From the IMG/VR virus record IMGVR_UViG_2713896905_000008: a stretch of DNA of 42,302 nucleotides, one strand, 5' to 3'. Of this stretch, positions 2,634 to 37,659 are shown piece by piece. Numbering within the stretch: the stretch's first letter is position 1; each line of letters starts with the position of its first letter. Below the pieces are notes generated by a model. It was not told the origin of the DNA. It searched no databases and saw only the letters and a list, made by a program, of their open reading frames with translations. A program made the translations under genes and the position numbers. This DNA is from a virus. Its lineage: Duplodnaviria > Heunggongvirae > Uroviricota > Caudoviricetes.

Positions 2634-3134
2634 GATAAATGCGGGATGCTACTTGCTCTTGTTACTGGACAACGTTTAGGCGATATCTGCAATTTGAAAT
2701 TCTCTGATATCTGGGACGACATGTTGCACATTACTCAGGAAAAAACCGGTTCAAAACTTGCTATTCCGCTTAACCTGAAATGCGATGCTCTGAATATTAC
2801 CCTTCGTGAAGTTATATCTCAGTGCAGGGATGCTGTTGTTAGTAAATATCTGGTCCATTACCGTCACACAACCTCTCAAGCAAACAGAGGGGACCAGGTT
2901 TCTGCAAATACTCTGACAACGGCTTTTAAAAAGGCCAGGGAAAAATGTGGCATAAAATGGGAGCAAGGAACTGCGCCCACATTTCATGAGCAGCGATCTC
3001 TGTCAGAACGGTTATATCGGGAACAGGGTCTGGATACGCAAAAGTTGTTAGGTCATAAATCCAGAAAAATGACCGACCGATACAATGATGATCGTGGTAA
3101 AGACTGGGTTATCGTAGATATGAAAACAGCATAG
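2634..3134 (+). pseudogene. 5'-truncated tyrosine integrase (paralogue of the int at 41175-42302)
   Basis: Translation LLALVTGQRLGDICNLKFSDIWDD...HEQRSLSERLYREQGLDTQKLLGHKS...DRYNDDRGKDW aligns with the C-terminal ~165 aa of the full integrase at the window end. The N-terminal two-thirds are absent; the upstream ORF sequence is unrelated. Confidence 0.8.
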
Positions 3135-3144
3135 AAAATAGCCA

Positions 3145-3180
3145 GTTTTGGGGAAGGGTTTTGGGGAAAGTTTTGGGGAA
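3145..3180. repeat. three tandem copies of GTTTTGGGGAA between the truncated integrase and the icd terminator
   Basis: cagTTTTGGGGAAGGGTTTTGGGGAAAGTTTTGGGGAAga read directly. Confidence 0.7.
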
Positions 3181-3190
3181 GATTTTACAT

Positions 3191-3224
3191 CATCATAAAA
3201 CAACGGGCGTGTTATACGCCCGTT
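3191..3224 (-). terminator. intrinsic terminator following the icd 3' end
   Basis: Perfect stem AACGGGCG/CGCCCGTT with loop, followed on the minus strand by GTTTTAT. Lies about 20 nt past the icd-like stop. Confidence 0.6.
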
Positions 3225-3240
3225 TCAATATTTAACACAT

Positions 3241-3414
3241 GTAGTGATTACATATTCTTGATGATCGCGTCACCAAACTCTGAACATTTCAGCAGCTTAG
3301 CGCCTTCCATCAGACGTTCGAAGTCATAGGTTACGGTCTTCGCATTGATTGCGCCTTCCATACCTTTAACAATCAGGTCTGCGGCTTCAGTCCAGCCCAT
3401 ATGGCGCAGCATTA
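3241..3414 (-). pseudogene. icd: duplicated 3' end of isocitrate dehydrogenase gene (icdC-like att-site duplication)
   Basis: Minus-strand translation [54 protein letters not shown] is the Icd C-terminus. Homology stops abruptly at about 3414, where A+T-rich phage DNA begins. Confidence 0.85.
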
Positions 3415-3645: not shown

Positions 3646-4479
3646 TTATTTCTGTAATCGATTTATATTAACGTAAAGCATCTCGATTAGTTCTTTTGCA
3701 TTTTTACTATAGTGCAATTCTCTATGGCAATTCGGACAAAGGGCAACACAGTTATCTGTTGTATCAGCACCACCTGAAGACAGGGGAATTACATGATGCA
3801 CTTCCAAGTATGGGCTTCCATCATTTAAATAAAACGGAGCATTTTTACCACAGTTTTCACATATACCTTTACTTTGCTGTAAAATCCAAGCTTTTACCAT
3901 CGGATCTCGGACATAAACTTTTTGTAGTCTTTCTACCTCAACTGGTTTCCTGGAGCCCTCGGGCTGACTCAACGTTTTCTTAATTAATTTACTAACCCTC
4001 ATATTCAGAAGCGATTCATCATCTGTAGGCTGAGAAAGCTCTGATAGTTCTCCACGTATTATAGACACCCAAAAACTGTCACTATAAATACCTGGAACAT
4101 TTATCAATATTCGTTTCGTTCTATTGCCGGAAGGAATTTCCTTTCTCCCCGTACGACTAAAATAAGCCTGATAACCACACATCTTCAAGCGTATATCGCG
4201 GGGGCTATTACCAATCAAAGTAAAATATTCACCAGGATGGATTTTTCTTTCATCCAAAGAATGCATATGTTTTCTGACTGATGATGACGCCAGATATACT
4301 ACGACTTGGGATACACCAGAATCAACCAACCGTTCAATGATATAATCAAGAGCGATATTGTAATCTTTGTTTCTGTCACCCGGCCCCCACGACTCAAGGA
4401 TTAGACCATAAACACCATCCTCTTCACCTATCAAACACTCAGCTTTCAGTTCAATTCCATTATTATCAAAAACATGCAT
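3646..4479 (-). CDS. mcrA: McrA, type IV 5-methylcytosine-specific restriction endonuclease (HNH)
   Basis: 277-aa translation matches E. coli McrA essentially end to end as I recall it (MHVFDNNGIELKAEC...CENCGKNAPFYLNDG...HHVIPLSSGGADTTDNCVALCPNCHRELH). Same position as in e14, next to pin. Confidence 0.9.
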   Translation of the reverse strand: MHVFDNNGIELKAECLIGEEDGVYGLILESWGPGDRNKDYNIALDYIIERLVDSGVSQVVVYLASSSVRKHMHSLDERKIHPGEYFTLIGNSPRDIRLKMCGYQAYFSRTGRKEIPSGNRTKRILINVPGIYSDSFWVSIIRGELSELSQPTDDESLLNMRVSKLIKKTLSQPEGSRKPVEVERLQKVYVRDPMVKAWILQQSKGICENCGKNAPFYLNDGSPYLEVHHVIPLSSGGADTTDNCVALCPNCHRELHYSKNAKELIEMLYVNINRLQK

Positions 4480-27406: not shown

Positions 27407-28582
27407 ATGGATATAACTTGTTTAGAATGTGGCAATGTTCTTGACGACCCAACTGTAGCTTGCGATAAATGCGGCGCCACGCCTCATGTTGTAGTGCTGG
27501 GCAAACAATCGTACTTTCCTATTGGTGCTGTAACAGCAAATCTTGAAAAAAATGATTCAAGAGCATTTGATTATCGATTAGGTGAAGTTTGGGATCTAAA
27601 AAATGAAGTCACATCTGAATTCATAACCAGAATTGAGAAAAAATTTAGCCGAAAAAACAAATTTCATAACTTCCTAGACTCAGATCACAACCCTTCATCC
27701 ATTCCTACGATCCTAAAAAAATACATTAATAAAAATAATGAATTCATTGATTTATCTAGAGCTATAATAGAGAAGCTTAAACATAATGCTAATAACGAAT
27801 CGAGAGTTGCCCAACTTCAGGGGGGGAGCGTTGTTTTCATCCACTATAAGTCTACCGAACCAGAGGATTTGGGAAAACTTCTAATCGTAATGGTTGATAA
27901 ACAAAGCGCCTATGACTTTGATTCGGATAAGTTGACCCCAACAAGATTAAATCCAATTAATACCGATGCCTTACGGCAGGCTGCGATGTTCGATTTAACT
28001 TTATTCGAAGCCAGTTATCCAGAAAACAAGGGTGACTCATATGTACATTTCTTGCAAGGTAAATCTAAAAGCGATTTTTTCAAAGACTCATTAGGTTGCC
28101 GACATGATTCGGACAATAAAAGAAGCATTCAGCAATTATTCAGTGCTATAGATATTTTTGCTAGTAAAAACTCACTCGGTCGTGTACTGCGTGATACTAT
28201 TGACAATGAAGTTAAATCCTTACTGGAAAAAAAATCAAAAGATAAATACGGAAATAAGTCCGTTAAGATAGAGGATATTTCAAAAATAATTGACTCATGC
28301 CTGACTGATTCACACAAATGTAAGGGAACGTTTGTCGATTTTGTTAATCTTAATGGTTTCCAGATTGATCCTCAATTTGAACCAACTCCTAAAGCAGCTG
28401 AAAGCGCGCTTACAATTGAAGTGGCAGATAACGACAATAATTTTAAGTTGAAAATAATGCGTGGAGCTATTGGAGACGAAAAGTCAAATAAGCCTGTAAT
28501 TCTCACTGACAACAAATGCGAAATTGTGATAAAATTGAGTCAGGCAAATTATGATGAACTCAAAAGATATAGAGACAGCTAA
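27407..28582 (+). CDS. zinc-ribbon protein with NdpA/YejK-like (NA37-type) region; first gene of a cargo pair
   Basis: 391 aa. N-terminal CLECGN...CDKCG four-Cys ribbon. Central region aligns by eye with YejK: GGSVVFIHY / GGFVLFCHY and YVHFLQGKSKSDFFKDSLG / [22 protein letters not shown]. A+T-rich. Confidence 0.6.
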   Translation: MDITCLECGNVLDDPTVACDKCGATPHVVVLGKQSYFPIGAVTANLEKNDSRAFDYRLGEVWDLKNEVTSEFITRIEKKFSRKNKFHNFLDSDHNPSSIPTILKKYINKNNEFIDLSRAIIEKLKHNANNESRVAQLQGGSVVFIHYKSTEPEDLGKLLIVMVDKQSAYDFDSDKLTPTRLNPINTDALRQAAMFDLTLFEASYPENKGDSYVHFLQGKSKSDFFKDSLGCRHDSDNKRSIQQLFSAIDIFASKNSLGRVLRDTIDNEVKSLLEKKSKDKYGNKSVKIEDISKIIDSCLTDSHKCKGTFVDFVNLNGFQIDPQFEPTPKAAESALTIEVADNDNNFKLKIMRGAIGDEKSNKPVILTDNKCEIVIKLSQANYDELKRYRDS

Positions 28583-28584
28583 TA

Positions 28585-29799
28585 ATGACAATTGCTGATG
28601 ACTTATCAAGATTAGCGCAGATTATTAACGGAGCCTCAAGCAGAGTTGAGGGCTACTACACTGTCATAAGTCTTGAAGAAAGCATTGTTATTGTAAATAG
28701 TTCTGAAATAATTAGACTGTTACAATCTATAGGTTATAAAAAGGCAACAAACTGCATCGAAAATAATGAAATTTGGCTAGATCGCCAAGCTTCATCTTGG
28801 GATGACGCTATAATTTATGAGAATGTTGAGTCTTTTTGGTCTAGAGTAAACACCCAAAACGCTCTTCCGAAAAATTATATCATCGGAACGCCGTTAATAC
28901 TCCCTACTTCTAAGAATGAAAGCATCGAAAAAATCCATATTTTCTTTATGTGGAAAGATATCCTTTCATTAATTGCTGATCATCATAACAGTGACTGCTC
29001 TGTCTTATTTTTCACCAATGAAGACAAAAGTTATACAGTCGAACTCACGCATTTTTTACAATATAGCGAGATTAATCGCTTATCGAACTCGTCTCTTAAA
29101 TATGAAATTATAAAGGAGCTTCTCGACACAATAAAAATCAATGATTTACACAAAAGCGAGCGCAAGCTCGTTATACGTTCAGCCATAAACGAAGTATTTA
29201 AAGCAAATGGTACATTCAATTTCTTTGACTTGCTTAACTCTACTGAACTCGTCAGAAAAAAATATGATGAACTATATGAGATTTACACAAAGAGGTTTTC
29301 TGTAAATAAAATTCTTAACGAACTCGATGAGAAAAATCTTGAGTTCACGAGTAAAATTAACGAATTCATATCATCTAATCAGACAAAAGCATTGACTATT
29401 CCCGGTGCATTAATAGCAGCTGGTGGCTTAGTGAAGGCTAATGAAACAACCGAAGCAATATTGATTATCGCAGGACTTTGGATGATAAAAAAAGTCAATT
29501 ACATTTCTATTGAGATATTCAATGAAACATTCGACAACTTACGTTCTCGAGTGGAGTCCGCTTTCGATAAGTATTTAAAGTTTGAAGAAAATAAAGAAAT
29601 CAAAGATAATGCAGATAGTATTAAGAGTAGCATTACAGGTTTGATTGATAAAGCTAAAAAAAGGATGAGAACTGTTAAATATCTCGCATCAGCCATGTTT
29701 TATGGAGGCCTTATTTACGTTGGATATAAACAGTTCCCAGTCTTTTTTGAAAAATCGGCAGTAAATCTATTTTATTTTTTATGCCATACTATAAGCTAA
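28585..29799 (+). CDS. protein with C-terminal two-helix membrane anchor; second gene of the cargo pair
   Basis: 404 aa, starts 2 nt after the upstream stop. Hydrophobic helices ALTIPGALIAAGGLV...AILIIAGLWMI and YLASAMFYGGLIYVGY. No enzymatic motif recognised. 3' end overlaps the Q gene stop convergently. Confidence 0.6.
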   Translation: MTIADDLSRLAQIINGASSRVEGYYTVISLEESIVIVNSSEIIRLLQSIGYKKATNCIENNEIWLDRQASSWDDAIIYENVESFWSRVNTQNALPKNYIIGTPLILPTSKNESIEKIHIFFMWKDILSLIADHHNSDCSVLFFTNEDKSYTVELTHFLQYSEINRLSNSSLKYEIIKELLDTIKINDLHKSERKLVIRSAINEVFKANGTFNFFDLLNSTELVRKKYDELYEIYTKRFSVNKILNELDEKNLEFTSKINEFISSNQTKALTIPGALIAAGGLVKANETTEAILIIAGLWMIKKVNYISIEIFNETFDNLRSRVESAFDKYLKFEENKEIKDNADSIKSSITGLIDKAKKRMRTVKYLASAMFYGGLIYVGYKQFPVFFEKSAVNLFYFLCHTIS

Positions 29800-30150
29800 C
29801 ATTGCTAAACAGCCGTCAACAAACCCCATGGCAGTCTGCAATTCCTTCCTAATTGTGCCATCTGAACATCTTCTCTTCTTGGCAATAGTGCGTAATGAGA
29901 TACCAATAACAAAGTGAGCTATGAGCAGCTCATATTCCTCTGGTTTATACTTTCGCAACCGAGCCACACAACCGTCTATCATGATGCCTTCATCATCATC
30001 ACACTGGAGACGTGACTTTTTACCGTGTGGTAAAAGTCCCTTGAAACCAGCCGCTATCGGCTGCCAGTCCACACCACTATTTTCTGCTGCAGCCCATGCT
30101 CCCCAGCGGTCCAATACTTCATACATATCACGCATCAACTTTCTCCACAA
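29779..30150 (-). CDS. late-gene antiterminator Q (QuuD / phage-82 type)
   Basis: 123 aa matching the QuuD family as I recall it (LDRWGAWAA...SIAAGFKGL...CDDD...CSDG). Confidence 0.8.
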   Translation of the reverse strand: MWRKLMRDMYEVLDRWGAWAAAENSGVDWQPIAAGFKGLLPHGKKSRLQCDDDEGIMIDGCVARLRKYKPEEYELLIAHFVIGISLRTIAKKRRCSDGTIRKELQTAMGFVDGCLAMLAYSMA

Positions 30151-30152
30151 AA

Positions 30153-31148
30153 TCAGGCCAGCACGCCAATTGCCAGCGCACGATCGATAAAACGAAATAT
30201 CAGCTCCAGCTGGGAGCCATACTTCTCTTCAAATGCCACGGTATCCGCATGCAGCTCGTCGTGATGCTTTCTGCACAAAGGCAACACAAAAAGGTCATGC
30301 GCTTTTGTTCCCATTCCACCCTGACCGTAACCTATCAGGTGATGGGGATCATCAGCGGGCCTTCCACAACATGCACACGGCTGTGTCTTAACCCAGCGCG
30401 TGTACTTTTCATTAACCCAGCGGCGACGTTTGGGGCGTAACATAAAAGACTCCGGCGACTCCGGATCCACTTTCAGCGCCAGCACCTTTTTCGCCTTATC
30501 CAGGATGATGCTGGTGGCAGGAACCGAAGGCACAAGGTCACTTTCCCGGGTGACAGACGGCACAACAGGCTTCGGTAATCTCAGTGCCTTACGGGCTGCA
30601 CTTTCCGGTAAGGCATCCGCCAGATCATTACGAATCAGCCACCAGCACAGTTCCGGCATTGTCACAACGTGACTGTCATCAAAACCGAGATCCCGACGCA
30701 CAACAGACAACACCCAGCGGGCACAGTTATCCGTTGCCATTGTTTCCAGCCGTTCCGTGAACTGATCGCGCAGCTGGTTATCGCAGTGCCAGCACAGACG
30801 GATTGCGCCCGGAGCGTGCCGCATTGTGGTCATGTTCTCGCTGTGCCAGTCGGAATGAGGCCACTGACAGCCCTTTTCACGAAGTAACCAGCTTTCAAGA
30901 CATTCCACGCCACCAGCACGACGGATCACTGCCTCATAGCGGAACACGGCCCGAACGGCAGGATCATCCGCCAGCGGTTGTGATGCCGCCGGAACGGCAC
31001 CACTGGCGAAAGATGAATAACGTTCTGGCTCAGGCTCCAGCAGGACACGCCCCTGCATAAACAGGGGCATCAGCTCTGTACCTGGTCTGAACAATACGAT
31101 CCCCATACGCGGGGCAATTTCAGGGGTCAGTAGTGCTCTCACGGTCAC
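30153..31148 (-). CDS. DUF968-like protein with C-terminal HNH-type Cys/His motif
   Basis: 331 aa; C-terminus CACCGRPADDPHHL...LCRKHHDELH; nin-region position. Confidence 0.5.
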   Translation of the reverse strand: MTVRALLTPEIAPRMGIVLFRPGTELMPLFMQGRVLLEPEPERYSSFASGAVPAASQPLADDPAVRAVFRYEAVIRRAGGVECLESWLLREKGCQWPHSDWHSENMTTMRHAPGAIRLCWHCDNQLRDQFTERLETMATDNCARWVLSVVRRDLGFDDSHVVTMPELCWWLIRNDLADALPESAARKALRLPKPVVPSVTRESDLVPSVPATSIILDKAKKVLALKVDPESPESFMLRPKRRRWVNEKYTRWVKTQPCACCGRPADDPHHLIGYGQGGMGTKAHDLFVLPLCRKHHDELHADTVAFEEKYGSQLELIFRFIDRALAIGVLA

Positions 31149-31149
31149 C

Positions 31150-31947
31150 TCAATGAACGGTATCGAGCAGCTTTAACAGCTCAGGGAATCGGGATTCGAA
31201 GAAATGCGGCTGCGTCTCGCGTGGATTTGCAGGACTGGTGATGTTCTTGCCGAACATGCAGCCTTTCGCTGTCAGCGACCAGAATTTTTTGATGTTGTTA
31301 ATCGCGGTACGGCTGTATCGTTCGCGCTGCTCGACGATCCCCAGCTTCGCCATCTGGTGATATGCCTGATTAGCCGTCAGGCAGATACCATACTGTTTCA
31401 GCAGTGCACTCAGTGACAGTGTCGGGCGACTTGAGCCATCGTGTGCATCAGCAGGAGCATCAATGGCATAGCGCGGTGCCAGATTCGGTAAGCCAACAGC
31501 CTCCTGGAGTTTCTGACAGGCACCAAGCACTGAAGAGTTAGACAGGTTTAACTCCCGGCGCATAAAGTCCAGCAGGATCACGCCAGCCTGCATCTTGTCA
31601 GCAGCCTGCCCGGATAATTTTTCCGGTGCGCTGGTTACCATGTCGAAAGTACGGATCACCTTCAGATGGAATGACGGGCTGATCCACATTGCATAGGCAT
31701 ACACCAGTTCTTTGCAGACATACGTCCCCTGGTTATTTCCGCCACGAATAACGTTAACTGGCTCTATATTGACCGAGTTGCAAATCTGCAACTCGCTTAT
31801 TAAACGCTCAGTTTGCTCATTGCGGAGCCAGAATGCAGGCTTATGCTTATCCAGAGAACCAGCAGCCCTGTGCAGATCGTTCAGGCTGTAACGCCCATAA
31901 GCATCACGACGAACTTCAATACCATCAATAACCATCAGATTATTCAT
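31150..31947 (-). CDS. KilA-N domain protein (putative)
   Basis: N-terminal MVIDGIEVRRDAYGRYSLNDLHRAAG...PAFWL resembles KilA-N; 265 aa. Confidence 0.5.
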   Translation of the reverse strand: MNNLMVIDGIEVRRDAYGRYSLNDLHRAAGSLDKHKPAFWLRNEQTERLISELQICNSVNIEPVNVIRGGNNQGTYVCKELVYAYAMWISPSFHLKVIRTFDMVTSAPEKLSGQAADKMQAGVILLDFMRRELNLSNSSVLGACQKLQEAVGLPNLAPRYAIDAPADAHDGSSRPTLSLSALLKQYGICLTANQAYHQMAKLGIVEQRERYSRTAINNIKKFWSLTAKGCMFGKNITSPANPRETQPHFFESRFPELLKLLDTVH

Positions 31948-31966
31948 ACTTCGTTTCTCCTCTTAA

Positions 31967-32356
31967 TCAGGCGGCTGCACCCGCCGGTTTCTCATACTTA
32001 CTGATAGTGATCTCGACCTTCCCTTCCGGGATAACCGGTCCCCACTCCACCAGCATTCTTTTCACCTGACTGTCGTCTTCCCACCCCCCCGCGTGGGTCA
32101 GGGCGTCAAACAGCGCCTTGTTATAGTTGTCCAGATCGCGGATCCTGTTATCCGGAGGAAACAACACGATCTCCACTGAAGCAGGTGCCGACGTTGGTTT
32201 CGGCAGACGACGTAACTGTTCAACTATTGCTGCGCACGCCGCGCTCTGGAATTTTCGCCCCGCCGCGCTTATCAGGCTCTTACCTGCAAACGCCCCTTTG
32301 TTGGGGTGTCGCCAGTACGTGTTCACGCTGGGCGGAAACGGCAGAATCAGCTTCAT
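31967..32356 (-). CDS. rusA: RusA-family Holliday-junction resolvase (intact copy)
   Basis: 129 aa with PPSVNTYWR and DLDNYNKALFDALTHAGGWEDDSQV, parallel to the RusA catalytic region. Confidence 0.75.
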   Translation of the reverse strand: MKLILPFPPSVNTYWRHPNKGAFAGKSLISAAGRKFQSAACAAIVEQLRRLPKPTSAPASVEIVLFPPDNRIRDLDNYNKALFDALTHAGGWEDDSQVKRMLVEWGPVIPEGKVEITISKYEKPAGAAA

Positions 32357-32679
32357 ACTTTCAGGCCCCTCTCATGTAACCAGTGGGCTGCACGCAGCCT
32401 GGCGTTTTCCTCACCGGCAAGCAGTGAGCGGATAATCCCGGCCGCCTCGCTGTCGTCGTCCTTCACCGCGGTATGAAGAGTGATACCCCGGGCCACGCCA
32501 CGCTTTATCGTGATGACGCCTTTTTTCTCCAGTGCGCGAAGATGCTCCACCGCTGCATTCACTGAACGGTATCCCAGCATGGTTGCCACCTCCTGATTGG
32601 TTGGCGGAAAGCCACGCTCTTTCTGGTAAGAAATCAGCATATCCAGCACCTGCTGCTGGCATTGAGTTAACGTCGTCAT
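32353..32679 (-). CDS. LexA-like winged-helix DNA-binding protein (no peptidase domain)
   Basis: 108 aa; QQQVLDMLISYQKERGFPPTNQEVATMLGYRSVNAAVEHLRALEKKGVI parallels the LexA N-terminal domain. Confidence 0.55.
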   Translation of the reverse strand: MTTLTQCQQQVLDMLISYQKERGFPPTNQEVATMLGYRSVNAAVEHLRALEKKGVITIKRGVARGITLHTAVKDDDSEAAGIIRSLLAGEENARLRAAHWLHERGLKV

Positions 32680-33362
32680 GCCGCCATCTCCCTGACCAGT
32701 TTTTCTGCCTGCTGGCGAACCTGCGCCAGAAAGGCCTCACCACATGCCTCAAGTTCATCGCGCCCGATGTAGCTGATTGCCGCTCCCTTCCAGGTCTTAT
32801 CGAAAACAGCAATAGCACCAGCGAAGAACGCTCCTGTCGGCACCTGCTTCTCATCCTTCGGGATAAACCAGACAGGCAGTTCAAAACCAATACGCCCGCG
32901 AATAAAAGCAATATGGTCCGCATCTTCCGGCCACCACACTTCGCTGGTGGCAGCTTTGATCAGGAAAACATAGCGCCCGCCCTTATCACGCATGGAACTG
33001 GCATGTTTCATGATGTAACGCATGCCGGTGATGTATTGCCCCTCATGCTGACTGGCGCGGCTGTATGGGGGATTACCAAAGGCAGCACCTTTAAGCTCCG
33101 CAAGACGTTCTGACCAGTCATGCGCCAGCGCGTTATCTTCCGCCGTGTAATACGCGGCACATTTGGCGTTATCACCGTCAGTAAACAGATCCAGAACAAA
33201 CGGGCCAAACAGGGTGTTAATTCCCCAGAAAATGTTGTCCGGCGTGCGCCACTGATCGCCCACTTCCTTCAGTTCATGGGCTGGTTTGTTCCGCAGTTCC
33301 ACCAGCGCCTGGCAATATTTATTACTCATTAAGCCCCCACGTAATTCCCTGACAGATACCAC
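32676..33362 (-). CDS. phage DNA N6-adenine methyltransferase
   Basis: 228 aa with NPPY catalytic motif (AAFGNPPYSRA). Confidence 0.7.
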   Translation of the reverse strand: MVSVRELRGGLMSNKYCQALVELRNKPAHELKEVGDQWRTPDNIFWGINTLFGPFVLDLFTDGDNAKCAAYYTAEDNALAHDWSERLAELKGAAFGNPPYSRASQHEGQYITGMRYIMKHASSMRDKGGRYVFLIKAATSEVWWPEDADHIAFIRGRIGFELPVWFIPKDEKQVPTGAFFAGAIAVFDKTWKGAAISYIGRDELEACGEAFLAQVRQQAEKLVREMAA

Positions 33363-33823
33363 TCTTCACCCGATGCAGCGCGCTTGCTGCTTTTCCGTAA
33401 GCACCGCTCACGACGCGTCAGAAAATTGTTTCGTTCTGGCTGGGAGTGGCTTTCACGGAATGCCGCCATCCACACGGTTGCAGCACGACGGTATAAGCCC
33501 CTTGACTCCAGTTCTTCAGCCTGGCGGGTCAGGCACAAAATCACCCGGGGATCGTTAGTGCCGACATAGAAATTGCGCACAGGTCTGGTTTCTCGAACTG
33601 GTTGTGGTTCCGGTTCCTGCGCTCTCTCAGTCAGGCGCGGGAAATGTCTGCGTGTATCTCCTTCACAACGGTGAGCCACACGCCCACTCTGACGTAACTT
33701 GCTTGCTGACTGCAGAACGCGCTGCCGTGAGTAACCAGCAAAAGCATCCGCAATGTCTCCGGAAGTGCACCCCGGATGGGCTTCAATGAATTTCTGAACG
33801 TCATTTAACAGACTCATGATCAC
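33329..33823 (-). CDS. hypothetical phage protein
   Basis: 164-aa ORF between the replication and methyltransferase genes; Arg-rich. Confidence 0.35.
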   Translation of the reverse strand: MIMSLLNDVQKFIEAHPGCTSGDIADAFAGYSRQRVLQSASKLRQSGRVAHRCEGDTRRHFPRLTERAQEPEPQPVRETRPVRNFYVGTNDPRVILCLTRQAEELESRGLYRRAATVWMAAFRESHSQPERNNFLTRRERCLRKSSKRAASGEEWYLSGNYVGA

Positions 33824-34761
33824 CCCCTAAATCCTGCCGGGATCTGGCTGTAGTCCACGTTGTCGTAACTGGCTTTGAAGTACGGGTCTTCACGTTTTTC
33901 TGTGTGCGTGCTGACGGACGGCGATAAGCGCAGGGAAAGCTCATCCCATTTTTCCCGCAACTTCGACGGGCTGAGCACGTTACGGCACCAGAACGGATCG
34001 CGGCTGACGCGGCTGTACATCTCGCAGATTTGTTTGTGAGTACGACCATCCTGCACACACATCAGGCGAATTTCGTTTGCCCAGGCTGTCCAGTTAGGTT
34101 CTTTGGGACGAACCACCTCGCCGTCACATTCGGCGGCCTGCTCGTACAGGGCGATGATTTTTTTCCAGAGCCACTGTGCGCAGGTCAAATCATCCTGCGT
34201 CCCCCACTGGCGCTTTTTAGGGCTGAATACAACCGCATCAGGATGGCGAGTTAAAAAATCCTGTTCATCCGTCTGCGTGTCCGGTTGCGAAGCGTCCGGA
34301 CGAGAAGGTTTTTTATCTGACGGATCATGTTTTGATTTTACTGACGGATCCCCGCCAGATTCTGACGGGTGAAAACCCGCTTTTTTGCCAGATTTCGACG
34401 CATCAAATTTTGACGGGTCAGATTTTGATGCGTCAGATTTTGACGGGTCAGAATCTGACAGTTGAGAAAATGCCGCTGCCTGAAGCTTCGCAACGTTAAG
34501 CTGATAAACATTCGACGCATTGCGGTTACCCTGGCGACGCGCCTTACGCGTTAACCAGCCTTCTGCTTCCAGCCGTGCGATAGCCGTCCTGACGGTACTC
34601 ATCCCCGCGCCAATCTGACGGGCAATAGTTTCAATTGATGGCCAGCACACACCTTCGTCATTACTGAAATCAGCCAGGCGGGCCATAATTGCCACGCTGG
34701 ATAATTTCATGCCTGACGCTGCGCAACCATCCCATACATAGCCGGTTAATTTAGTGCTCAT
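33820..34761 (-). CDS. replication initiation protein (O-like) containing iterons
   Basis: 313 aa; N-terminal winged-helix-like region; central low-complexity SDSDPSKSDASKSDPSKFDASKS encoded by tandem DNA repeats. Confidence 0.6.
   Translation of the reverse strand: MSTKLTGYVWDGCAASGMKLSSVAIMARLADFSNDEGVCWPSIETIARQIGAGMSTVRTAIARLEAEGWLTRKARRQGNRNASNVYQLNVAKLQAAAFSQLSDSDPSKSDASKSDPSKFDASKSGKKAGFHPSESGGDPSVKSKHDPSDKKPSRPDASQPDTQTDEQDFLTRHPDAVVFSPKKRQWGTQDDLTCAQWLWKKIIALYEQAAECDGEVVRPKEPNWTAWANEIRLMCVQDGRTHKQICEMYSRVSRDPFWCRNVLSPSKLREKWDELSLRLSPSVSTHTEKREDPYFKASYDNVDYSQIPAGFRG
34356..34463. repeat. iteron array (candidate replication origin) inside the replication gene
   Basis: Six or more roughly 15-bp units of CAGATTTTGACGGGT type (CAGATTCTGACGGGT, CAGATTTCGACGCAT, CAAATTTTGACGGGT, CAGATTTTGATGCGT, CAGATTTTGACGGGT, CAGAATCTGACAGTT). 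Confidence 0.6.
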
Positions 34762-34770
34762 GACCGACCT

Positions 34771-35109
34771 CTATTTCCCTGAATTTACGACGAAACTGTT
34801 CGAGCGGGCTGAAGCACTCATGCTCATAGCCTTCACGGAGGTAGATAACCCGTTGTGTTTCCGGCTCCCAACGAATGACTCTGACGGGCACTCCGTAGTG
34901 ATCTTTGAACCAGCGGTTAACTTGTCGCAAAGGACTGTCTCCTTCTGCCGGTTGAAATCACCCACAGCCCACTCAGCAAAGCTGTGGGTTACAATTTCCC
35001 TGTCACCTGGTACATTCACTGCATAGCAATACTCCACCTTCGCTTTTCCACCCGGTACAGGAAGCGCAATCAGTTGCGAGCGACGGTAGTGTGTTGTTAA
35101 ACTGTTCAT
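34771..35109 (-). CDS. hypothetical early protein (YmfM-like by size and position)
   Basis: 112-aa ORF between the CII-like and replication genes. Its C-terminal third also reads plausibly in another frame, so the boundary is uncertain. Confidence 0.4.
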
Positions 35110-35696
35110 GCGTTAGTTTCTCCACAACCAGAAGCAATCGACGCCACGACGCCCGGAGCTGCACACTCGCGGGCGTCATTACTTTCTGAAATGCAAAAAA
35201 TTTTGTAGACAAGTGCTGCATGCTCCTGCAGCTTCGAAATTGAGAGGTACAGCTCGTCGTTAATTGCTGTCTTCTCATGCGGTTCCACTACACCGTCTTC
35301 GATTGCTGAACGAATCTGTTTTGAATAACTGCCGATCTGTTCAATGACTTCCAGCAGACGCTGGTTAATATCGGCGTTGTCCACATCCTCGACGTCAGGA
35401 AGAGACACAAAGACGCCATTTGCAGACTGCGCCACAGCGTCAGCAATGAAGTGAGTGCCACCAGCACGTTGTAAAATCATTGCCCATCCCAGCGGGAAAA
35501 TTTGATCGCCATCGGCACGAAGGCGATTAAATAATGCGTTCTCTGTTACATCCAGCCAGTCAGCTGCTTCAGCGTAACCCCCCGGCAACGCTGCGATAGT
35601 TTTTCTGACAGCTTTCACGTACCACTTAGGCTGTTTTTCTACTTTCCAGTGATGCTTACCCACGGCTATCTCCTTAAAACTGTGGTTACTTTTCAT
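35106..35696 (-). CDS. early regulatory protein (YmfL/CII-like, putative)
   Basis: ORF-track span 35106-35768; likely start at MKSNHSFKE. Second gene of the rightward early operon after cro. Confidence 0.45.
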
Positions 35697-35934
35697 CTGA
35701 TGAATCTTTAATCTTTTGAAAAATATCTGGACGTAATTTTTCTTTTGATATGCCAGTGGTCTTTTCAATGAATATCGAGAGCTTTGCAGGGGGACGCTTT
35801 TCTCTGTTCAACCAGTTCCAGACATGTTGTTGCTTTACTAAATGACCGCTGCTGGCTGTGAGCTTCCGAGCCAATTCTGATTGACCACCAGCCAGAGCGA
35901 TTGCCTCCGATAAGGCTAATTGCTCAGGTGTCAT
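35686..35934 (-). CDS. Cro-like repressor (YdaS-type HTH)
   Basis: 82 aa; helix-turn-helix LSEAIALAGGQSELARKLTASSGHLVKQ; divergent from the CI-like gene across the operator region. Confidence 0.7.
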   Translation of the reverse strand: MTPEQLALSEAIALAGGQSELARKLTASSGHLVKQQHVWNWLNREKRPPAKLSIFIEKTTGISKEKLRPDIFQKIKDSSDEK

Positions 35935-36069
35935 AGCTTTCTCCTTTTTAGGTAGTTAAGTTGTTACGAGTTGCAAGAATACAACATTAACAACTTTTAT
36001 CACAACTTTTAGGTGTTGGAAAGCTAAAACATAAAGTTGTAACCTCATCAAAAAAGAGAGGGATATGTT
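35935..36069. promoter_or_regulatory. OR-like divergent promoter/operator region between cro and cI
   Basis: Multiple copies of the half-site ACAACTT / AAGTTGT (AAGTTGTtacg..., ACAACAttaACAACTTttatcACAACTTtt..., ataAAGTTGTaac) in the 135-bp intergenic region. Confidence 0.6.
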
Positions 36070-36756
36070 GTGAAAACACTGGCAGAACGATTAAAGATAG
36101 GTAGAGAGAAAGCTGGCATGAGCCAAGCTCAACTAGCTGAAAAAATTGGACTTTCACAACAATCTGTAGCCAAAATAGAGAATGGCGAAACTCTACAACC
36201 GCGCAAAATTAAAGAAATTGCAAAAGTTTTAGGTGTATCACAAAAGTGGTTACAACTTGGTATTGAAGACAACGCATCCATACCTGATCTTGTTGTAAAA
36301 GAAGCAGAAAGCACCGCATTAGACCCCGATATTTTCGTAAACATTCCTGTTTTAGATGTCGAGTTATCGGCAGGTAACGGATGTCTGGCTGAAATAGTTG
36401 AATCAGCTATTGACTGGTTTCCGTTAAGAAGAGCAGATTTGAGAAAATCTGGCGTATGTGCATCTAATGCCAAGATCGTAAAAATATGGGGGAACAGTTT
36501 ATTACCGGTTCTCAATAATGGAGATCTTGTTGCCGTTGATATTTCTCAAACCATTCCTATTCGTGATGGCGATCTTTATGCCGTACGAGATGGTGTATTG
36601 CTAAGGGTTAAAATACTTATCAACTTACCTGACGGTGGCTTGATTCTTAGAAGCTTCAACAAAGATGAGTACCCAGATGAAATACTCACCTTTGAAGATA
36701 GACGAGCCAGAATTCATGTTATAGGTAGGGTATTCTGGTCATCGCGAACTTGGTAA
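36070..36756 (+). CDS. CI-like prophage repressor (HTH plus LexA/S24 peptidase-like domain)
   Basis: 228 aa; N-terminal HTH MSQAQLAEKIGLSQQSVAKIENG; C-terminal S24-like region (IWGNSLLPVLNNGDLVAVD). Probable GTG start. Confidence 0.8.
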   Translation: MKTLAERLKIGREKAGMSQAQLAEKIGLSQQSVAKIENGETLQPRKIKEIAKVLGVSQKWLQLGIEDNASIPDLVVKEAESTALDPDIFVNIPVLDVELSAGNGCLAEIVESAIDWFPLRRADLRKSGVCASNAKIVKIWGNSLLPVLNNGDLVAVDISQTIPIRDGDLYAVRDGVLLRVKILINLPDGGLILRSFNKDEYPDEILTFEDRRARIHVIGRVFWSSRTW

Positions 36757-37659
36757 TGCATCGAAAAGCATTTCTTCAGAAATAATTTTAAGTTTTGCAC
36801 CATTATCATCCCTATAAGATATAGCTTTTTCGATCTTCCTTCCGTGACTTGAGAATTTCCAATCACGGGAGGAAAGCGTCCCAATTACTAAAAAATCCAA
36901 CTTTTGAGTAATTCCACTACTGATGTTCCCACCAGCATTTTTAATCAAATTTTCAACTACGGCTCTCTTTCCTGCAACAAAAGTGCCTGTAAGACAATAG
37001 GTTTTACCCTCTAACTCTATCGAAGCCCCTACATCAATAGGCAGCCTGGTCGCCAAACCATCCACCACCCCACTTTCCAAGTCACATCCTGTGAAGTCTA
37101 CTAATGCCTTATGTAGAGTTAAACTCTCATCTTCAGTAATAACCCCATCTTTAAGAATTTCCTTTACAAGTGCATAAAGTTTTTTTCCTGGGTAGTTGTT
37201 CTTCAAAGCTCCATTTTGCTCAAGCCACCAATTAAGATATCTTATTTCTTCTTGAGTTAAGTTCCGATCAGCAATTAATCCTTTACATAGTCCATTAAGT
37301 AAATGGACATCTACATCCTTGGAGTAAAAATCAATTTCAGGGATATCAAGAATTTCCCTCTGTATTTGGAGAAGGCTATTTTTAAGGTCATCACGTTCTT
37401 CTGATGTGATTATTCCATCCGCAAGAATATCCGACACCCGTGCTGATAGACTTTTTATAACTCCATTATTGATAATCTGCTTTGCTTCAAGTAACCATGT
37501 ATCTAAGTAAAGAACCTCCTCTTCACGGACAACTCCATCTGCAATGATTCCATCAATGATGCTAATCAAGTTAGCAAATAACTTGTCCCGGTTCTGTGTG
37601 TAATTAAAAGCGTAAAGCGCGTCTTCCATACAACCTCCTTTTTTTGATAATCCTTGCAC
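36739..37659 (-). CDS. BRCT-domain protein with four N-terminal ~35-aa repeats, unknown function (cargo at rexAB-equivalent position)
   Basis: C-terminus LEGKTYCLTGTFVAGKRAVVENLIKNAGGNISSGITQKLDFLVIG...KLKIISEEMLFDAL parallels the LigA-type BRCT fold. N-terminal repeats each contain ..ADG.IT.EE...L.. A+T-rich; convergent with cI. Confidence 0.55.
   Translation of the reverse strand: MQGLSKKGGCMEDALYAFNYTQNRDKLFANLISIIDGIIADGVVREEEVLYLDTWLLEAKQIINNGVIKSLSARVSDILADGIITSEERDDLKNSLLQIQREILDIPEIDFYSKDVDVHLLNGLCKGLIADRNLTQEEIRYLNWWLEQNGALKNNYPGKKLYALVKEILKDGVITEDESLTLHKALVDFTGCDLESGVVDGLATRLPIDVGASIELEGKTYCLTGTFVAGKRAVVENLIKNAGGNISSGITQKLDFLVIGTLSSRDWKFSSHGRKIEKAISYRDDNGAKLKIISEEMLFDALPSSR

Follow-up and report, generated by a model that had tools for sequence, protein, structure and literature searches.

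GIL01, a tectivirus of Bacillus, encodes gp6, a truncated homologue of LexA that activates the late promoter P3 via a palindrome of its own (PMC6182141), and the nin region of phage lambda encodes NinH, a mimic of Fis that forms a homodimer and displays a Fis-like site preference (PMC7166090). In the Gifsy-type operon an SOS box is followed by dinI, an antirepressor gene and irsA (PMC3121763). The locus described here lies in a stretch of viral DNA of 42,302 nucleotides, the whole of which we refer to as the window, and encodes a small LexA-like protein. Like gp6, this protein is a phage-encoded LexA DNA-binding domain that lacks the catalytic domain, yet gp6 belongs to another type of phage, another host and another genomic setting, and is described as a bare winged helix-turn-helix without a helical tail. 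Like NinH, it is a small nin-region copy of just that part of a global host regulator which binds DNA, although the two folds are unrelated, NinH having a Fis-type helix-turn-helix and the window protein the winged helix of LexA.

The closest described relatives carry the very same module. Phages SfV (dam-orf42-orf43, the last being rusA), SfII, mEp460 (gp45-47), cdtI and the Stx2c/Stx2a phages, as well as E. coli prophages with yfdN-type (PerC-family) genes, share the order PerC-Dam-LexA-like-RusA-KilA-N-DUF968-Q, and in the named phages nucleotide identity is 95-99% throughout. Nothing material differs among the sequenced phage variants; they vary only in the presence of the Dam cassette or, in SfIV, by a frameshift in rusA. 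Of 5426 complete E. coli genomes, 2703 likewise carry the block at 95-99% identity. The module is already known, common and annotated since phage SfV, in which orf42 is the LexA-like gene (PGAP names it "LexA family transcriptional regulator"). That the block is well known and widespread was missed in a first-pass annotation of this DNA, as was the fact that, judged by conservation, the LexA-like gene is linked most strongly to rusA/DUF968 and not to the methylase. We found no publication on this LexA-like protein.

Layout of the gene block and its RusA

The three genes named in the first-pass annotation, a rusA, a lexA-like gene and an adenine methyltransferase gene, were all found on the minus strand where it had placed them, and the profile matches agree with their naming. 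RusA, a Holliday junction resolvase family protein of 129 aa, is encoded at 31967-32356 (PF05866, E 8.3e-14; phrog_34, E 9.9e-57), the LexA N-terminal-domain mimic of 108 aa at 32353-32679 (PF01726, E 3e-19; phrog_362, E 1.1e-58) and the methyltransferase at 32676-33329. Upstream stands a gene for a PerC/YfdN-like protein (33329-33823, minus strand; PF06069, E 5.5e-9; phrog_1324). ATGA overlaps join the PerC/Dam, Dam/LexA-like and LexA-like/RusA pairs, and the Dam, LexA-like and RusA genes, all on the minus strand, are translationally coupled.

The block is bordered on the left by an O-like replication initiator (33820-34761, minus strand; phrog_391, E 1.4e-135), within which iterons at 34397-34459 consist of inverted and direct repeats of GTCAGATTTTGAC. 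Downstream follow, on the same strand, a KilA-N domain protein (31150-31947; PF04383, E 2.2e-26), a DUF968/HNH-like protein (30153-31148; PF06147, E 5e-80) and, at the right edge, the antiterminator Q (29779-30150; PF06530, E 2.6e-47). As the region spans the O-like replication gene to Q, the label "nin-like" that it had been given is apt and its placement stands. The block forms the distal part of the early-right (nin-like) operon in a lambdoid prophage of E. coli, one of the SfV/mEp460/Stx2c-phage type; transcription from the early promoter reaches its three coupled genes once it has passed the replication genes. The identities of the genes of the block are hardly in doubt.

RusA scores 52.7 bits against PF05866 (gathering cut-off 22.8) and its alignment to 1Q8R, the RusA of E. 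coli, has an E of 7.5e-18 and keeps the acidic catalytic motif RDLDN..K..DD; RDLDN-x2-K and DD correspond to D70, D72, K76 and D91 of RusA. The exception model for the E. coli K-12 orthologue, NF007305, gives 69.7 bits, as compared to at least 200 needed, and judged by these scores the protein is a member of the family and not the DLP12 orthologue. It would resolve branched replication or recombination intermediates ahead of packaging.

A facultative Dam cassette

The longest open reading frame of the methyltransferase extends over 32676-33362 with a GTG start at 33362. The ATG at 33329, giving a protein of 217 aa, is most likely the start, because PGAP annotates it so in a 99.3% identical E. 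coli locus. The product is an orphan phage N6-adenine DNA methyltransferase of the T1/HP1/VT2 Dam family. It matches PF05869 at E 5.1e-45 (153.6 bits, gathering 28.1), TIGR01712 at 254.4 bits over profile positions 1-165 of 165 (cut-off 97.05) and the PADLOC model MTase_II at E 9.8e-157. With the phage Dam family PF05869/TIGR01712 it shares the full-length match above the equivalog cut-off, the NPPY motif and its orphan status in a temperate phage. NPPY, the catalytic motif IV, is read by direct translation at 33063-33074 (minus strand), corresponding to residues 97-100 of the long reading frame, in keeping with the first-pass annotation. That annotation had also stated that the enzyme is without a partner restriction gene; its neighbours are indeed the PerC-like and LexA-like genes, and no cognate restriction endonuclease gene was found near it in profile and PADLOC searches of the 42-kb window. 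The sole restriction-type gene in the 42 kb, at 3646-4479 and some 29 kb distant, encodes a McrA-like type IV enzyme. A sequence search of the PDB found no solved structure related to the methyltransferase. RefSeq phage records mislabel this Dam as "phosphoadenosine phosphosulfate reductase".

Comparison with SfIV shows the Dam gene to be a precise 654-bp indel with ATGA at its borders. Of 80 near-identical loci 49-51 carry it, about 36% of otherwise identical modules do not, and in the variants that lack it the stop of the PerC-like gene overlaps the start of the LexA-like gene. Dam is a facultative, ORF-sized cassette. In relatives its place is occupied by three unrelated methylase families, suggesting a general "methylase slot".

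Orphan phage methylases are classically protective, and protection of phage DNA, as the first-pass annotation had thought probable, is plausible for this one. The enzyme would act on phage and host DNA at its site, probably GATC as in characterised relatives, and the methylation would either shield the DNA from GATC-type restriction or ensure full methylation of fast-replicating DNA. GATC is the target of the characterised members of the family (Dam), among which we count T1 Dam, and it is methylated by the Dam of the E. coli host as well. Against protection at GATC stand this redundancy with host Dam and the modules, about 36% of otherwise identical ones, that do without the gene. It is possible, if somewhat doubtful, that the methylase is used mainly outside anti-restriction, in DNA transactions or regulation (full methylation for packaging, replication or gene control), or that its specificity is other than GATC. 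Such a use fits a host that already has Dam, a gene that is optional among otherwise identical phages, a slot filled by three unrelated methylase families and the frequency of GATC in the window, where 155 sites were observed as compared to 217 expected from a Markov model and no enrichment is seen. It has to be set, however, against the classic protective role of orphan phage methylases and against the relatives, the cloned HP1 and VT-2 enzymes being named Dam methyltransferases in the family's reference list.

The LexA-like protein and its relatives

PF01726 spans residues 1-65 of the LexA-like protein over the complete profile (65 of 65 positions) at 69 bits, as compared to a gathering cut-off of 23.7, and the 106-position profile phrog_362 matches the protein end to end. 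Its sequence is about 50% identical to the N-terminal domain of E. coli LexA. In an AF2 model, the winged helix-turn-helix comprises residues 1-69 (32473-32679, minus strand), with helices at 6-22, 28-35 and 40-52 and strands at 56-59 and 65-68, and Foldseek superimposes it on the LexA-DNA complex 3JSO (3jso_B) at E 6.4e-6 and an rmsd of 1.5 A. The recognition helix, SVNAAVEHL, is encoded at 32539-32565 (minus strand).

The profile search found no Peptidase_S24 domain in the protein, which stops at residue 108, so that the S24 peptidase/dimerisation domain with its Ser119/Lys156 dyad is not present; the cI-like repressor of the same window (36070-36756) does carry PF00717. The LexA equivalog TIGR00498 matches only at profile positions 1-91 of 203 and reaches about 68 bits, well below its cut-off of 110.95. 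The earlier description of the protein as LexA-like and lacking a peptidase domain is therefore borne out, whereas its description as a winged-helix domain only falls short, since residues 75-102 (32374-32457, minus strand) add a conserved, family-specific tail of two helices. These are predicted by AF2 at 75-87 and 93-102 with pLDDT of about 85, in a monomer model whose pTM is 0.52. No Pfam family matches the tail; its A97 and L101 never vary, and relatives at 38-49% identity share its hydrophobic pattern. Such conservation argues for a functional extra element, and the modelled helices may serve in dimerisation or another interaction. E. coli LexA (TIGR00498; PDB 1LEA, 3JSO) thus shares with the window protein the winged helix, S39, N41, A42, E45 and the wing residue R64, but it has the S24 peptidase/dimerisation domain and the Ala-Gly site where the window protein has its private two-helix tail.

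HMMER aligned "LLAGE" of the LexA-like protein to the cleavage region "VAAGE" of LexA. We considered a cryptic LexA cleavage site, or a substrate for cleavage in trans, and rejected it, as the AG is AN, VG or another pair in relatives; the self-cleavage site Ala84-Gly85 is not conserved, and the aligned AG ends a predicted helix.

The base-contacting residues of LexA were taken from PMC3091678. Four of the five are kept in the window protein (Ser39, Asn41, Ala42 and Glu45), while Glu44 is replaced by V. Among 50 sequences of the family, S39 and the wing residue R64 are found in all, N41 in 49 and A42 in 47. Glu44 is kept in none, and Glu45 is Leu in 26. As Glu44 is never kept and Glu45 is often lost, operator specificity may have diverged or relaxed; genes with the Glu45 to Leu exchange still stand behind canonical SOS boxes.

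Relatives were sampled through representatives of 50% clusters. The family as defined here consists of proteins of about 105-135 aa with a winged helix-turn-helix and a helix-loop-helix tail (A97 and L101 invariant), whose genes precede rusA and/or DUF968 and Q in the nin block, and the window protein belongs to it. The family is conserved over 38-99% identity, the non-LexA tail included, and the window protein is a member of a genuine family and not a gene fragment. In the subfamily of the window protein (A), all 80 near-identical loci have the LexA-like gene directly upstream of rusA, in most cases with an overlap, and the same position was seen in all the more distant subfamily-A clusters examined, in one case with a reverse ORF inserted. 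Across both subfamilies the gene found most constantly downstream is DUF968, which accompanies all 38 types of subfamily B and most subfamily-A loci. A strict LexA-like/RusA coupling as a rule for the whole family was rejected, since it fails in most of subfamily B: rusA is missing from 31 of the 38 types, and also from the Klebsiella phage ST846-OXA48phi9.1.

A near-consensus SOS box (heterology index, HI, below 9) is found within 1.2 kb upstream in 28 of 38 distinct subfamily-B sequences, and in 36 of 38 when sites with HI up to 9.1 in the fetched flank are counted. In most cases dinI follows the box, directly beside which lies a promoter-like site. The presence of LexA-like relatives in SOS-box/dinI operons fits an SOS theme. 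The subfamily-B cassette, SOS box-dinI-small ORF-X-phrog_1212-resolvase/HNH-Q, in which X is the LexA-like gene, parallels the Gifsy-type operon in architecture, but in Gifsy-2 the position X is held by irsA (DUF1367, NinB/Orf-like), whose product has no relation to the LexA-like protein, with NinG next. The small ORF (phrog_1813) is unrelated to the Gifsy protein GftA (phrog_4847), and unlike the Gifsy operon the window has neither dinI nor an SOS box. That the subfamily-B protein is Gifsy irsA was rejected, the two having no similarity, and the assignment of phrog_1813 to the Gifsy antirepressor family is unsupported, tblastn giving no match and position alone being analogous. The SOS box of subfamily B is explained more simply by a Gifsy-like module of dinI/antirepressor type inserted upstream.

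Possible roles of the LexA-like protein

We propose, tentatively and somewhat short of an even chance, that the LexA-like protein is a RecA-insensitive mimic of LexA that binds SOS-like operators. It would dimerise via its tail and occupy operators of the LexA type, resembling SOS boxes. Lacking both the S24 peptidase domain and a conserved cleavage site, the mimic would escape inactivation by RecA* and would thus restore or retune the repression of SOS-controlled promoters during phage development. Its targets could be host SOS genes; LexA-controlled promoters of antirepressors or morons in this or co-resident prophages are other candidates. In favour of such a mimic are the identity of about 50% to the LexA N-terminal domain, the rmsd of 1.5 A, the contact residues kept, the conserved tail, the SOS context of subfamily B and the phage precedents lambda NinH and GIL01 gp6. 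Against it are the lack in the window of an SOS box beyond chance, Glu44 never kept and Glu45 variable, the simpler account of the subfamily-B SOS box as part of an inserted Gifsy-like module, a dimerisation via the tail that rests on a monomer model with pTM 0.52, and gp6 itself, a precedent in which such a truncation acquired a new operator and the role of an activator.

The first-pass annotation had suggested that the protein could bind SOS boxes, and LexA-box-like sites were sought in the 42-kb window by motif and by matrix; neither revealed any beyond chance. The motif CTGT-N8-ACAG with up to one mismatch gave 22 matches, as compared to 13.1 +/- 3.5 expected, and not a single exact copy. 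In a scan with a heterology-index matrix derived from 26 E. coli sites, the best site of the window had an HI of 12.8, which was equalled in 57 of 100 shuffles, and no site fell below 10. With no SOS box in the window, any target of the mimic would be outside this prophage. Likewise, a search of 29700-36200 for internal promoters, terminators and palindromic operators found none above chance except the ori iterons and the cro/cI operators.

The missing SOS box equally suits a phage-specific transcription factor in the manner of gp6, with a LexA fold but an operator of its own, acting on a phage promoter (late, Q or moron, for example) and not on the SOS regulon. We regard this as rather unlikely. 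The gp6 protein shows that a truncated LexA homologue can activate a late promoter from its own palindrome, positions 44 and 45 of the recognition helix vary across the family, and the gene's place in the operon is always shortly ahead of Q; yet the early-right region holds no conserved candidate palindrome, its inverted repeats being only the ori iterons and the cro/cI operators, and the window protein departs from LexA at just one of five contact residues. In addition, the conserved tail has no equivalent in gp6, and the two truncations are not known to have a common origin. The constant neighbours of the gene would instead point to a DNA-binding accessory of a recombination/DNA-processing block (RusA, DUF968/HNH), which would target or modulate junction resolution instead of regulating transcription. 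This would explain a position directly upstream of rusA in every near-identical locus and every distant subfamily-A cluster examined, with DUF968 next in all subfamily-B types; in Gifsy-2 irsA, a recombination mediator that is NinB/Orf-like, takes up the equivalent slot and NinG comes next, and lambda NinH is another DNA-binding protein of a nin region. However, in mosaic lambdoid operons the neighbours of a gene say little about its function, rusA is absent from most subfamily-B types and the Klebsiella phage, SfIV keeps an intact LexA-like gene beside a frameshifted rusA, the RusA of E. coli and of phage 82 needs no partner, and the conserved sequence-reading residues S39, N41 and A42 suggest site-specific binding, all of which makes an accessory role distinctly improbable.

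A decaying, functionless fragment of a captured host lexA might also match the first 90 or so residues of LexA and place "LLAGE" opposite "VAAGE". Conservation effectively refutes this reading, which we hold to be scarcely credible: the protein is full length against its PHROG profile, the family is conserved from 38 to 99% identity together with a tail that is not derived from LexA, and the gene persists in thousands of genomes with its translational coupling intact, while an identity of only about 50% to host LexA indicates that the capture was not recent.

As a sequence feature the block is ordinary, about one in two complete E. coli genomes having it, as do Stx2c/Stx2a-converting phages, and the LexA mimic is its one part of possible interest. 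For the annotation of phage genomes it offers a precisely bounded facultative Dam cassette and a slot that takes three unrelated methylase families. If the mimic binds SOS boxes uncleaved, a common prophage gene would modulate the SOS response, and with it mutagenesis, filamentation and persistence; the induction of Stx phages and the cross-talk between prophages would be modulated too. It is conceivable, though doubtful, that the LexA-NTD-plus-tail proteins of enterobacterial lambdoid phages act in general as a phage "uncleavable LexA" which re-closes the host SOS regulon and the LexA-gated switches of prophages. Together with DinI, co-transcribed from an SOS-box promoter in one subfamily, they would form a two-component, self-limiting shut-off of the SOS response, by which a single prophage may fix the threshold at which the cell and its co-residents are induced, in about half of E. 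coli genomes.

The block and its setting

The interval 31967-33362 consists of three consecutive minus-strand ORFs, which encode a RusA-family resolvase (31967-32356, 129 aa; PF05866 E 8.3e-14, phrog_34 E 9.9e-57), a LexA_DNA_bind-only protein (32353-32679, 108 aa; PF01726 positions 1-65 of 65, E 3e-19), hereafter the LexA-like protein, and a phage Dam-family methyltransferase (32676-33362 as the longest ORF, 228 aa; PF05869 E 5.1e-45). The resolvase aligns to E. coli RusA (1Q8R, E 7.5e-18) with its acidic motif RDLDN-x2-K...DD intact. Every junction, PerC/Dam, Dam/LexA-like and LexA-like/RusA, is an ATGA overlap, indicating translational coupling. As the block is preceded by an O-like initiator, CII-like and Cro-like genes and a cI-like S24 repressor and is followed by KilA-N, DUF968 and Q, its setting is the nin-equivalent region of a lambdoid prophage, and ORFs, profile matches and flanking genes together confirm the nin-like combination of RusA, LexA-like protein and adenine methyltransferase described in the first-pass annotation.

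The block is an already known, catalogued and extremely common prophage module. DNA 95-99% identical to a 2-kb query across it occurs in 2703 of 5426 complete E. coli genomes, with at least 80% of the query covered in 1675 of the 2703. The same query matches 51 phage records, Stx2c- and Stx2a-converting phages among them, and a query with the LexA-like protein adds SfV, SfII, SfIV, cdtI and mEp460. The genes are named dam, orf42 ('unknown') and orf43 in SfV and gp45-47 in mEp460.

Several other features lie in the same prophage. Four GTCAGATTTTGAC-like iterons, in inverted and direct repeats, are found at 34397-34459 inside the O-like replication gene, where they coincide with a repetitive peptide stretch (DPSKSDASKS); they are the probable phage origin. 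A minus-strand gene at 36739-37659, convergent with the cI-like repressor gene (36070-36756) and overlapping its end, encodes a protein of 306 aa that has a BRCT domain at its C-terminus and matches PADLOC PDC-S48 weakly; it is possibly expressed in lysogens for defence or exclusion. Between Q and the lysis genes, the moron slot is occupied by two low-GC (~35%) ORFs on the opposite strand (27407-29799, plus). The product of one resembles the nucleoid-associated protein NA37/NdpA (391 aa; PF04245, E 1.4e-23), and that of the other, 404 aa long, matches no family and no PADLOC entry.

The methylase as an optional gene

The methyltransferase scores 254 bits against the equivalog model TIGR01712 (cut-off 97) and matches PADLOC MTase_II at E 9.8e-157, and the catalytic NPPY motif previously assigned to it is present at 33063-33074. 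In a 99.3% identical genome PGAP places the start at the ATG matching 33329, in overlap with the stop codon of the PerC/YfdN-like gene upstream. Cloned family members from phages HP1 and VT-2 are cited as Dam methyltransferases. A sequence search of the PDB returned no relative with a solved structure. T1 Dam is, we assume, another member of this family, whose target is presumably GATC; as GATC is already modified by the Dam of the E. coli host, such a target would be redundant with the host. That the enzyme shields phage DNA is a plausible proposal. The methylase is indeed an orphan, with regulatory genes as neighbours. The sole restriction-type gene in the 42-kb window encodes an McrA-like type IV methyl-directed restriction enzyme (3646-4479, minus, 277 aa; full-length match to PADLOC PDLC03656, E 1.9e-200), which is not its partner.

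Dam is a facultative gene of the module. Dam is present in 49-51 of 80 IMG/VR loci with a LexA-like gene of at least 98% identity and missing from about 36% of them; in 29 the PerC stop directly overlaps the LexA-like start. The difference is an exact 654-bp indel with ATGA on both sides (window 32676-33331 versus 2450-2545 of the SfIV locus), so that the variants with and without Dam share identical translational coupling. In distant relatives the slot holds PF02086, PF00145, PF00145+PF02086 fusions or no methylase. Altogether three unrelated families fill the position directly upstream of the LexA-like gene (loci L002, L004, L009, L095 and L100), namely PF05869 Dam, PF02086 D12-class and PF00145 C5 enzymes, the last including C5+D12 fusions of 609-846 aa; the slot is either an insertion hot spot for methylases or reflects an unexplained functional link. 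Several RefSeq phage records label the 217-aa Dam methylase 'phosphoadenosine phosphosulfate reductase' (e.g. mEp460 locus, 1851-2504), apparently because phrog_33262 is a fusion family in which the methylase forms the C-terminal 210 positions.

A LexA head with its own tail

The LexA-like protein aligns with residues 2-69 of E. coli LexA at ~50% identity. It lacks a peptidase domain, as had been noted from the sequence: a profile search gives no Peptidase_S24 match, and the score against the LexA equivalog model, 68 bits, is below the cut-off of 111. Its AF2 model (mean pLDDT 77) has three helices and a wing of two strands and can be superposed on 3JSO, a LexA-DNA complex, with an rmsd of 1.5 A. 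Two more helices, modelled with confidence at residues 75-87 and 93-102, follow the wing as a tail covered by no Pfam family. Homologues 64-99% identical occur in Escherichia, Citrobacter, Salmonella and Hafnia, and a HMMER search of 1.84 billion representatives found clusters of 38-49% identity in Cronobacter, Enterobacter, Cedecea, Klebsiella and Salmonella, in which the tail pattern persists and A97 and L101 never vary. This conservation excludes a decaying lexA fragment. Homologues do not conserve the 'AG' placed by HMMER opposite the LexA cleavage site, and together with the conserved fold and tail this points to a RecA-uncleavable mimic of the LexA head with its own C-terminal module. 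Judging from the model, the tail may stand in for the dimerisation function of the absent LexA C-terminal domain. We found no published work on this protein in the literature searched.

Many proteins of 140-350 aa among the deep-search hits (P0127-P0235) carry a tandem pair of LexA_DNA_bind stretches. This suggests LexA-head pseudo-dimers formed within a single chain, which, if true, would be another route to dispensing with the LexA dimerisation domain.

LexA contacts bases through Ser39, Asn41, Ala42, Glu44 and Glu45 (PMC3091678). Over 50 family sequences, S39 and the wing residue R64 are kept in all 50, N41 in 49 and A42 in 47; position 44 is A, L, V or F and in no case Glu, and position 45 is Glu in 17, including the window protein, and Leu in 26. 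The window protein thus keeps four of the five contacts (SVNAAVEHL versus SPNAAEEHL in LexA), which makes a LexA-like half-site plausible but not assured.

Operators, neighbours and candidate roles

The window contains no exact CTGT-N8-ACAG and no site with a heterology index (HI, a score for SOS boxes) below 10; its best HI, 12.8, was reached in 57 of 100 shuffles, the matrix being built from 26 E. coli SOS sites. Any SOS-type target would therefore lie on the host chromosome or in other prophages. The first-pass interpretation is upheld in part: the missing domain, the solitary methylase and a plausible connection to SOS all stand; the search for LexA-type sites that it proposed is negative for the window. 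A strong box lies within 3 kb in only 7 of the 80 near-identical loci. One of these is SfIV (L013), where a near-consensus box (TACTGTATTTATGAACAGTA, HI 4.6) lies ~100 bp ahead of a KilA-N gene whose N-terminus differs; this placement suggests that the antirepressor-like gene beside the LexA-like gene is LexA-controlled.

The short proteins of the window type (subfamily A) are encoded directly upstream of rusA, normally overlapping it, in each of the 80 close loci and throughout the distant clusters examined (P0123, P0124, P0125, P0150, P0163 and phage mEp390; P0122 with a reverse ORF inserted), and the strongest conserved partnership of the gene is with rusA/DUF968, a point that the first-pass annotation missed. 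No strong box (HI < 11) was found in the six subfamily-A loci scanned. Relatives with an N-terminal extension (subfamily B: P0131, P0132, P0134 and P0146 types) reside in Klebsiella, Enterobacter, Salmonella and Cedecea prophages (L101-L180, L003, L008, L096, L097), in the order SOS box, (dinI), phrog_1813, LexA-like gene, phrog_1212, (rusA), DUF968, Q. Over 38 distinct sequences, a box of HI < 9 lies within 1.2 kb upstream in 28 and a box of HI up to 9.1 anywhere in the fetched flank in 36; dinI is present in 28, DUF968 in all 38 and rusA in only 7. In L003 the box adjoins a promoter-like site, and in L008 it is preceded by a terminator-like hairpin; Q lies downstream of a predicted LexA-gated promoter. 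In L097 a 95-aa ORF with a RecA_C match (PF21096; 4310-4597) immediately follows tandem SOS boxes and precedes the phrog_1813 and LexA-like genes, in place of the dinI of other loci. The cassette parallels in architecture the LexA-controlled Gifsy operon dinI-antirepressor-irsA (PMC3121763), yet phrog_1212 is the only element common to it and Gifsy-2: phrog_1813, in the antirepressor position, is unrelated to GftA, and irsA (DUF1367, NinB/Orf-like), in the LexA-like position, is unrelated to the LexA-like protein. The SOS-box context indicates that subfamily-B relatives are transcribed in an SOS-induced unit beside the SOS modulator DinI; it is not proof of binding to the boxes.

The role of the window protein can be read in several ways. 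The best supported, which we hold tentatively, is that of an SOS-box-binding mimic. Phage mimicry of this kind has precedents in lambda NinH, a nin-region Fis mimic with a Fis-like site preference (PMC7166090), and in gp6 of GIL01, a LexA-NTD homologue (PMC6182141). As gp6 has come to use a new operator and is an activator of late transcription, it also supplies the main rival, a phage-specific regulator, which we regard as possible but unlikely here. That the protein is a recombination accessory acting with RusA and DUF968 would suit the tight adjacency to rusA in subfamily A; rusA is, however, often absent from subfamily B, and SfIV keeps the LexA-like gene beside a rusA frameshifted into 33-aa and 71-aa pieces (2824-3385 of its locus), so that we consider this role quite improbable. 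Some other function is improbable as well.

Under the SOS-box-binding reading, we propose that the protein would imitate, on behalf of the phage, the DNA-binding head of LexA, occupying LexA-type operators as a tail-mediated dimer; as RecA* would be unable to inactivate it, it could retune SOS-gated promoters during phage development. This LexA mimic is a cheap and reasonable experimental target.
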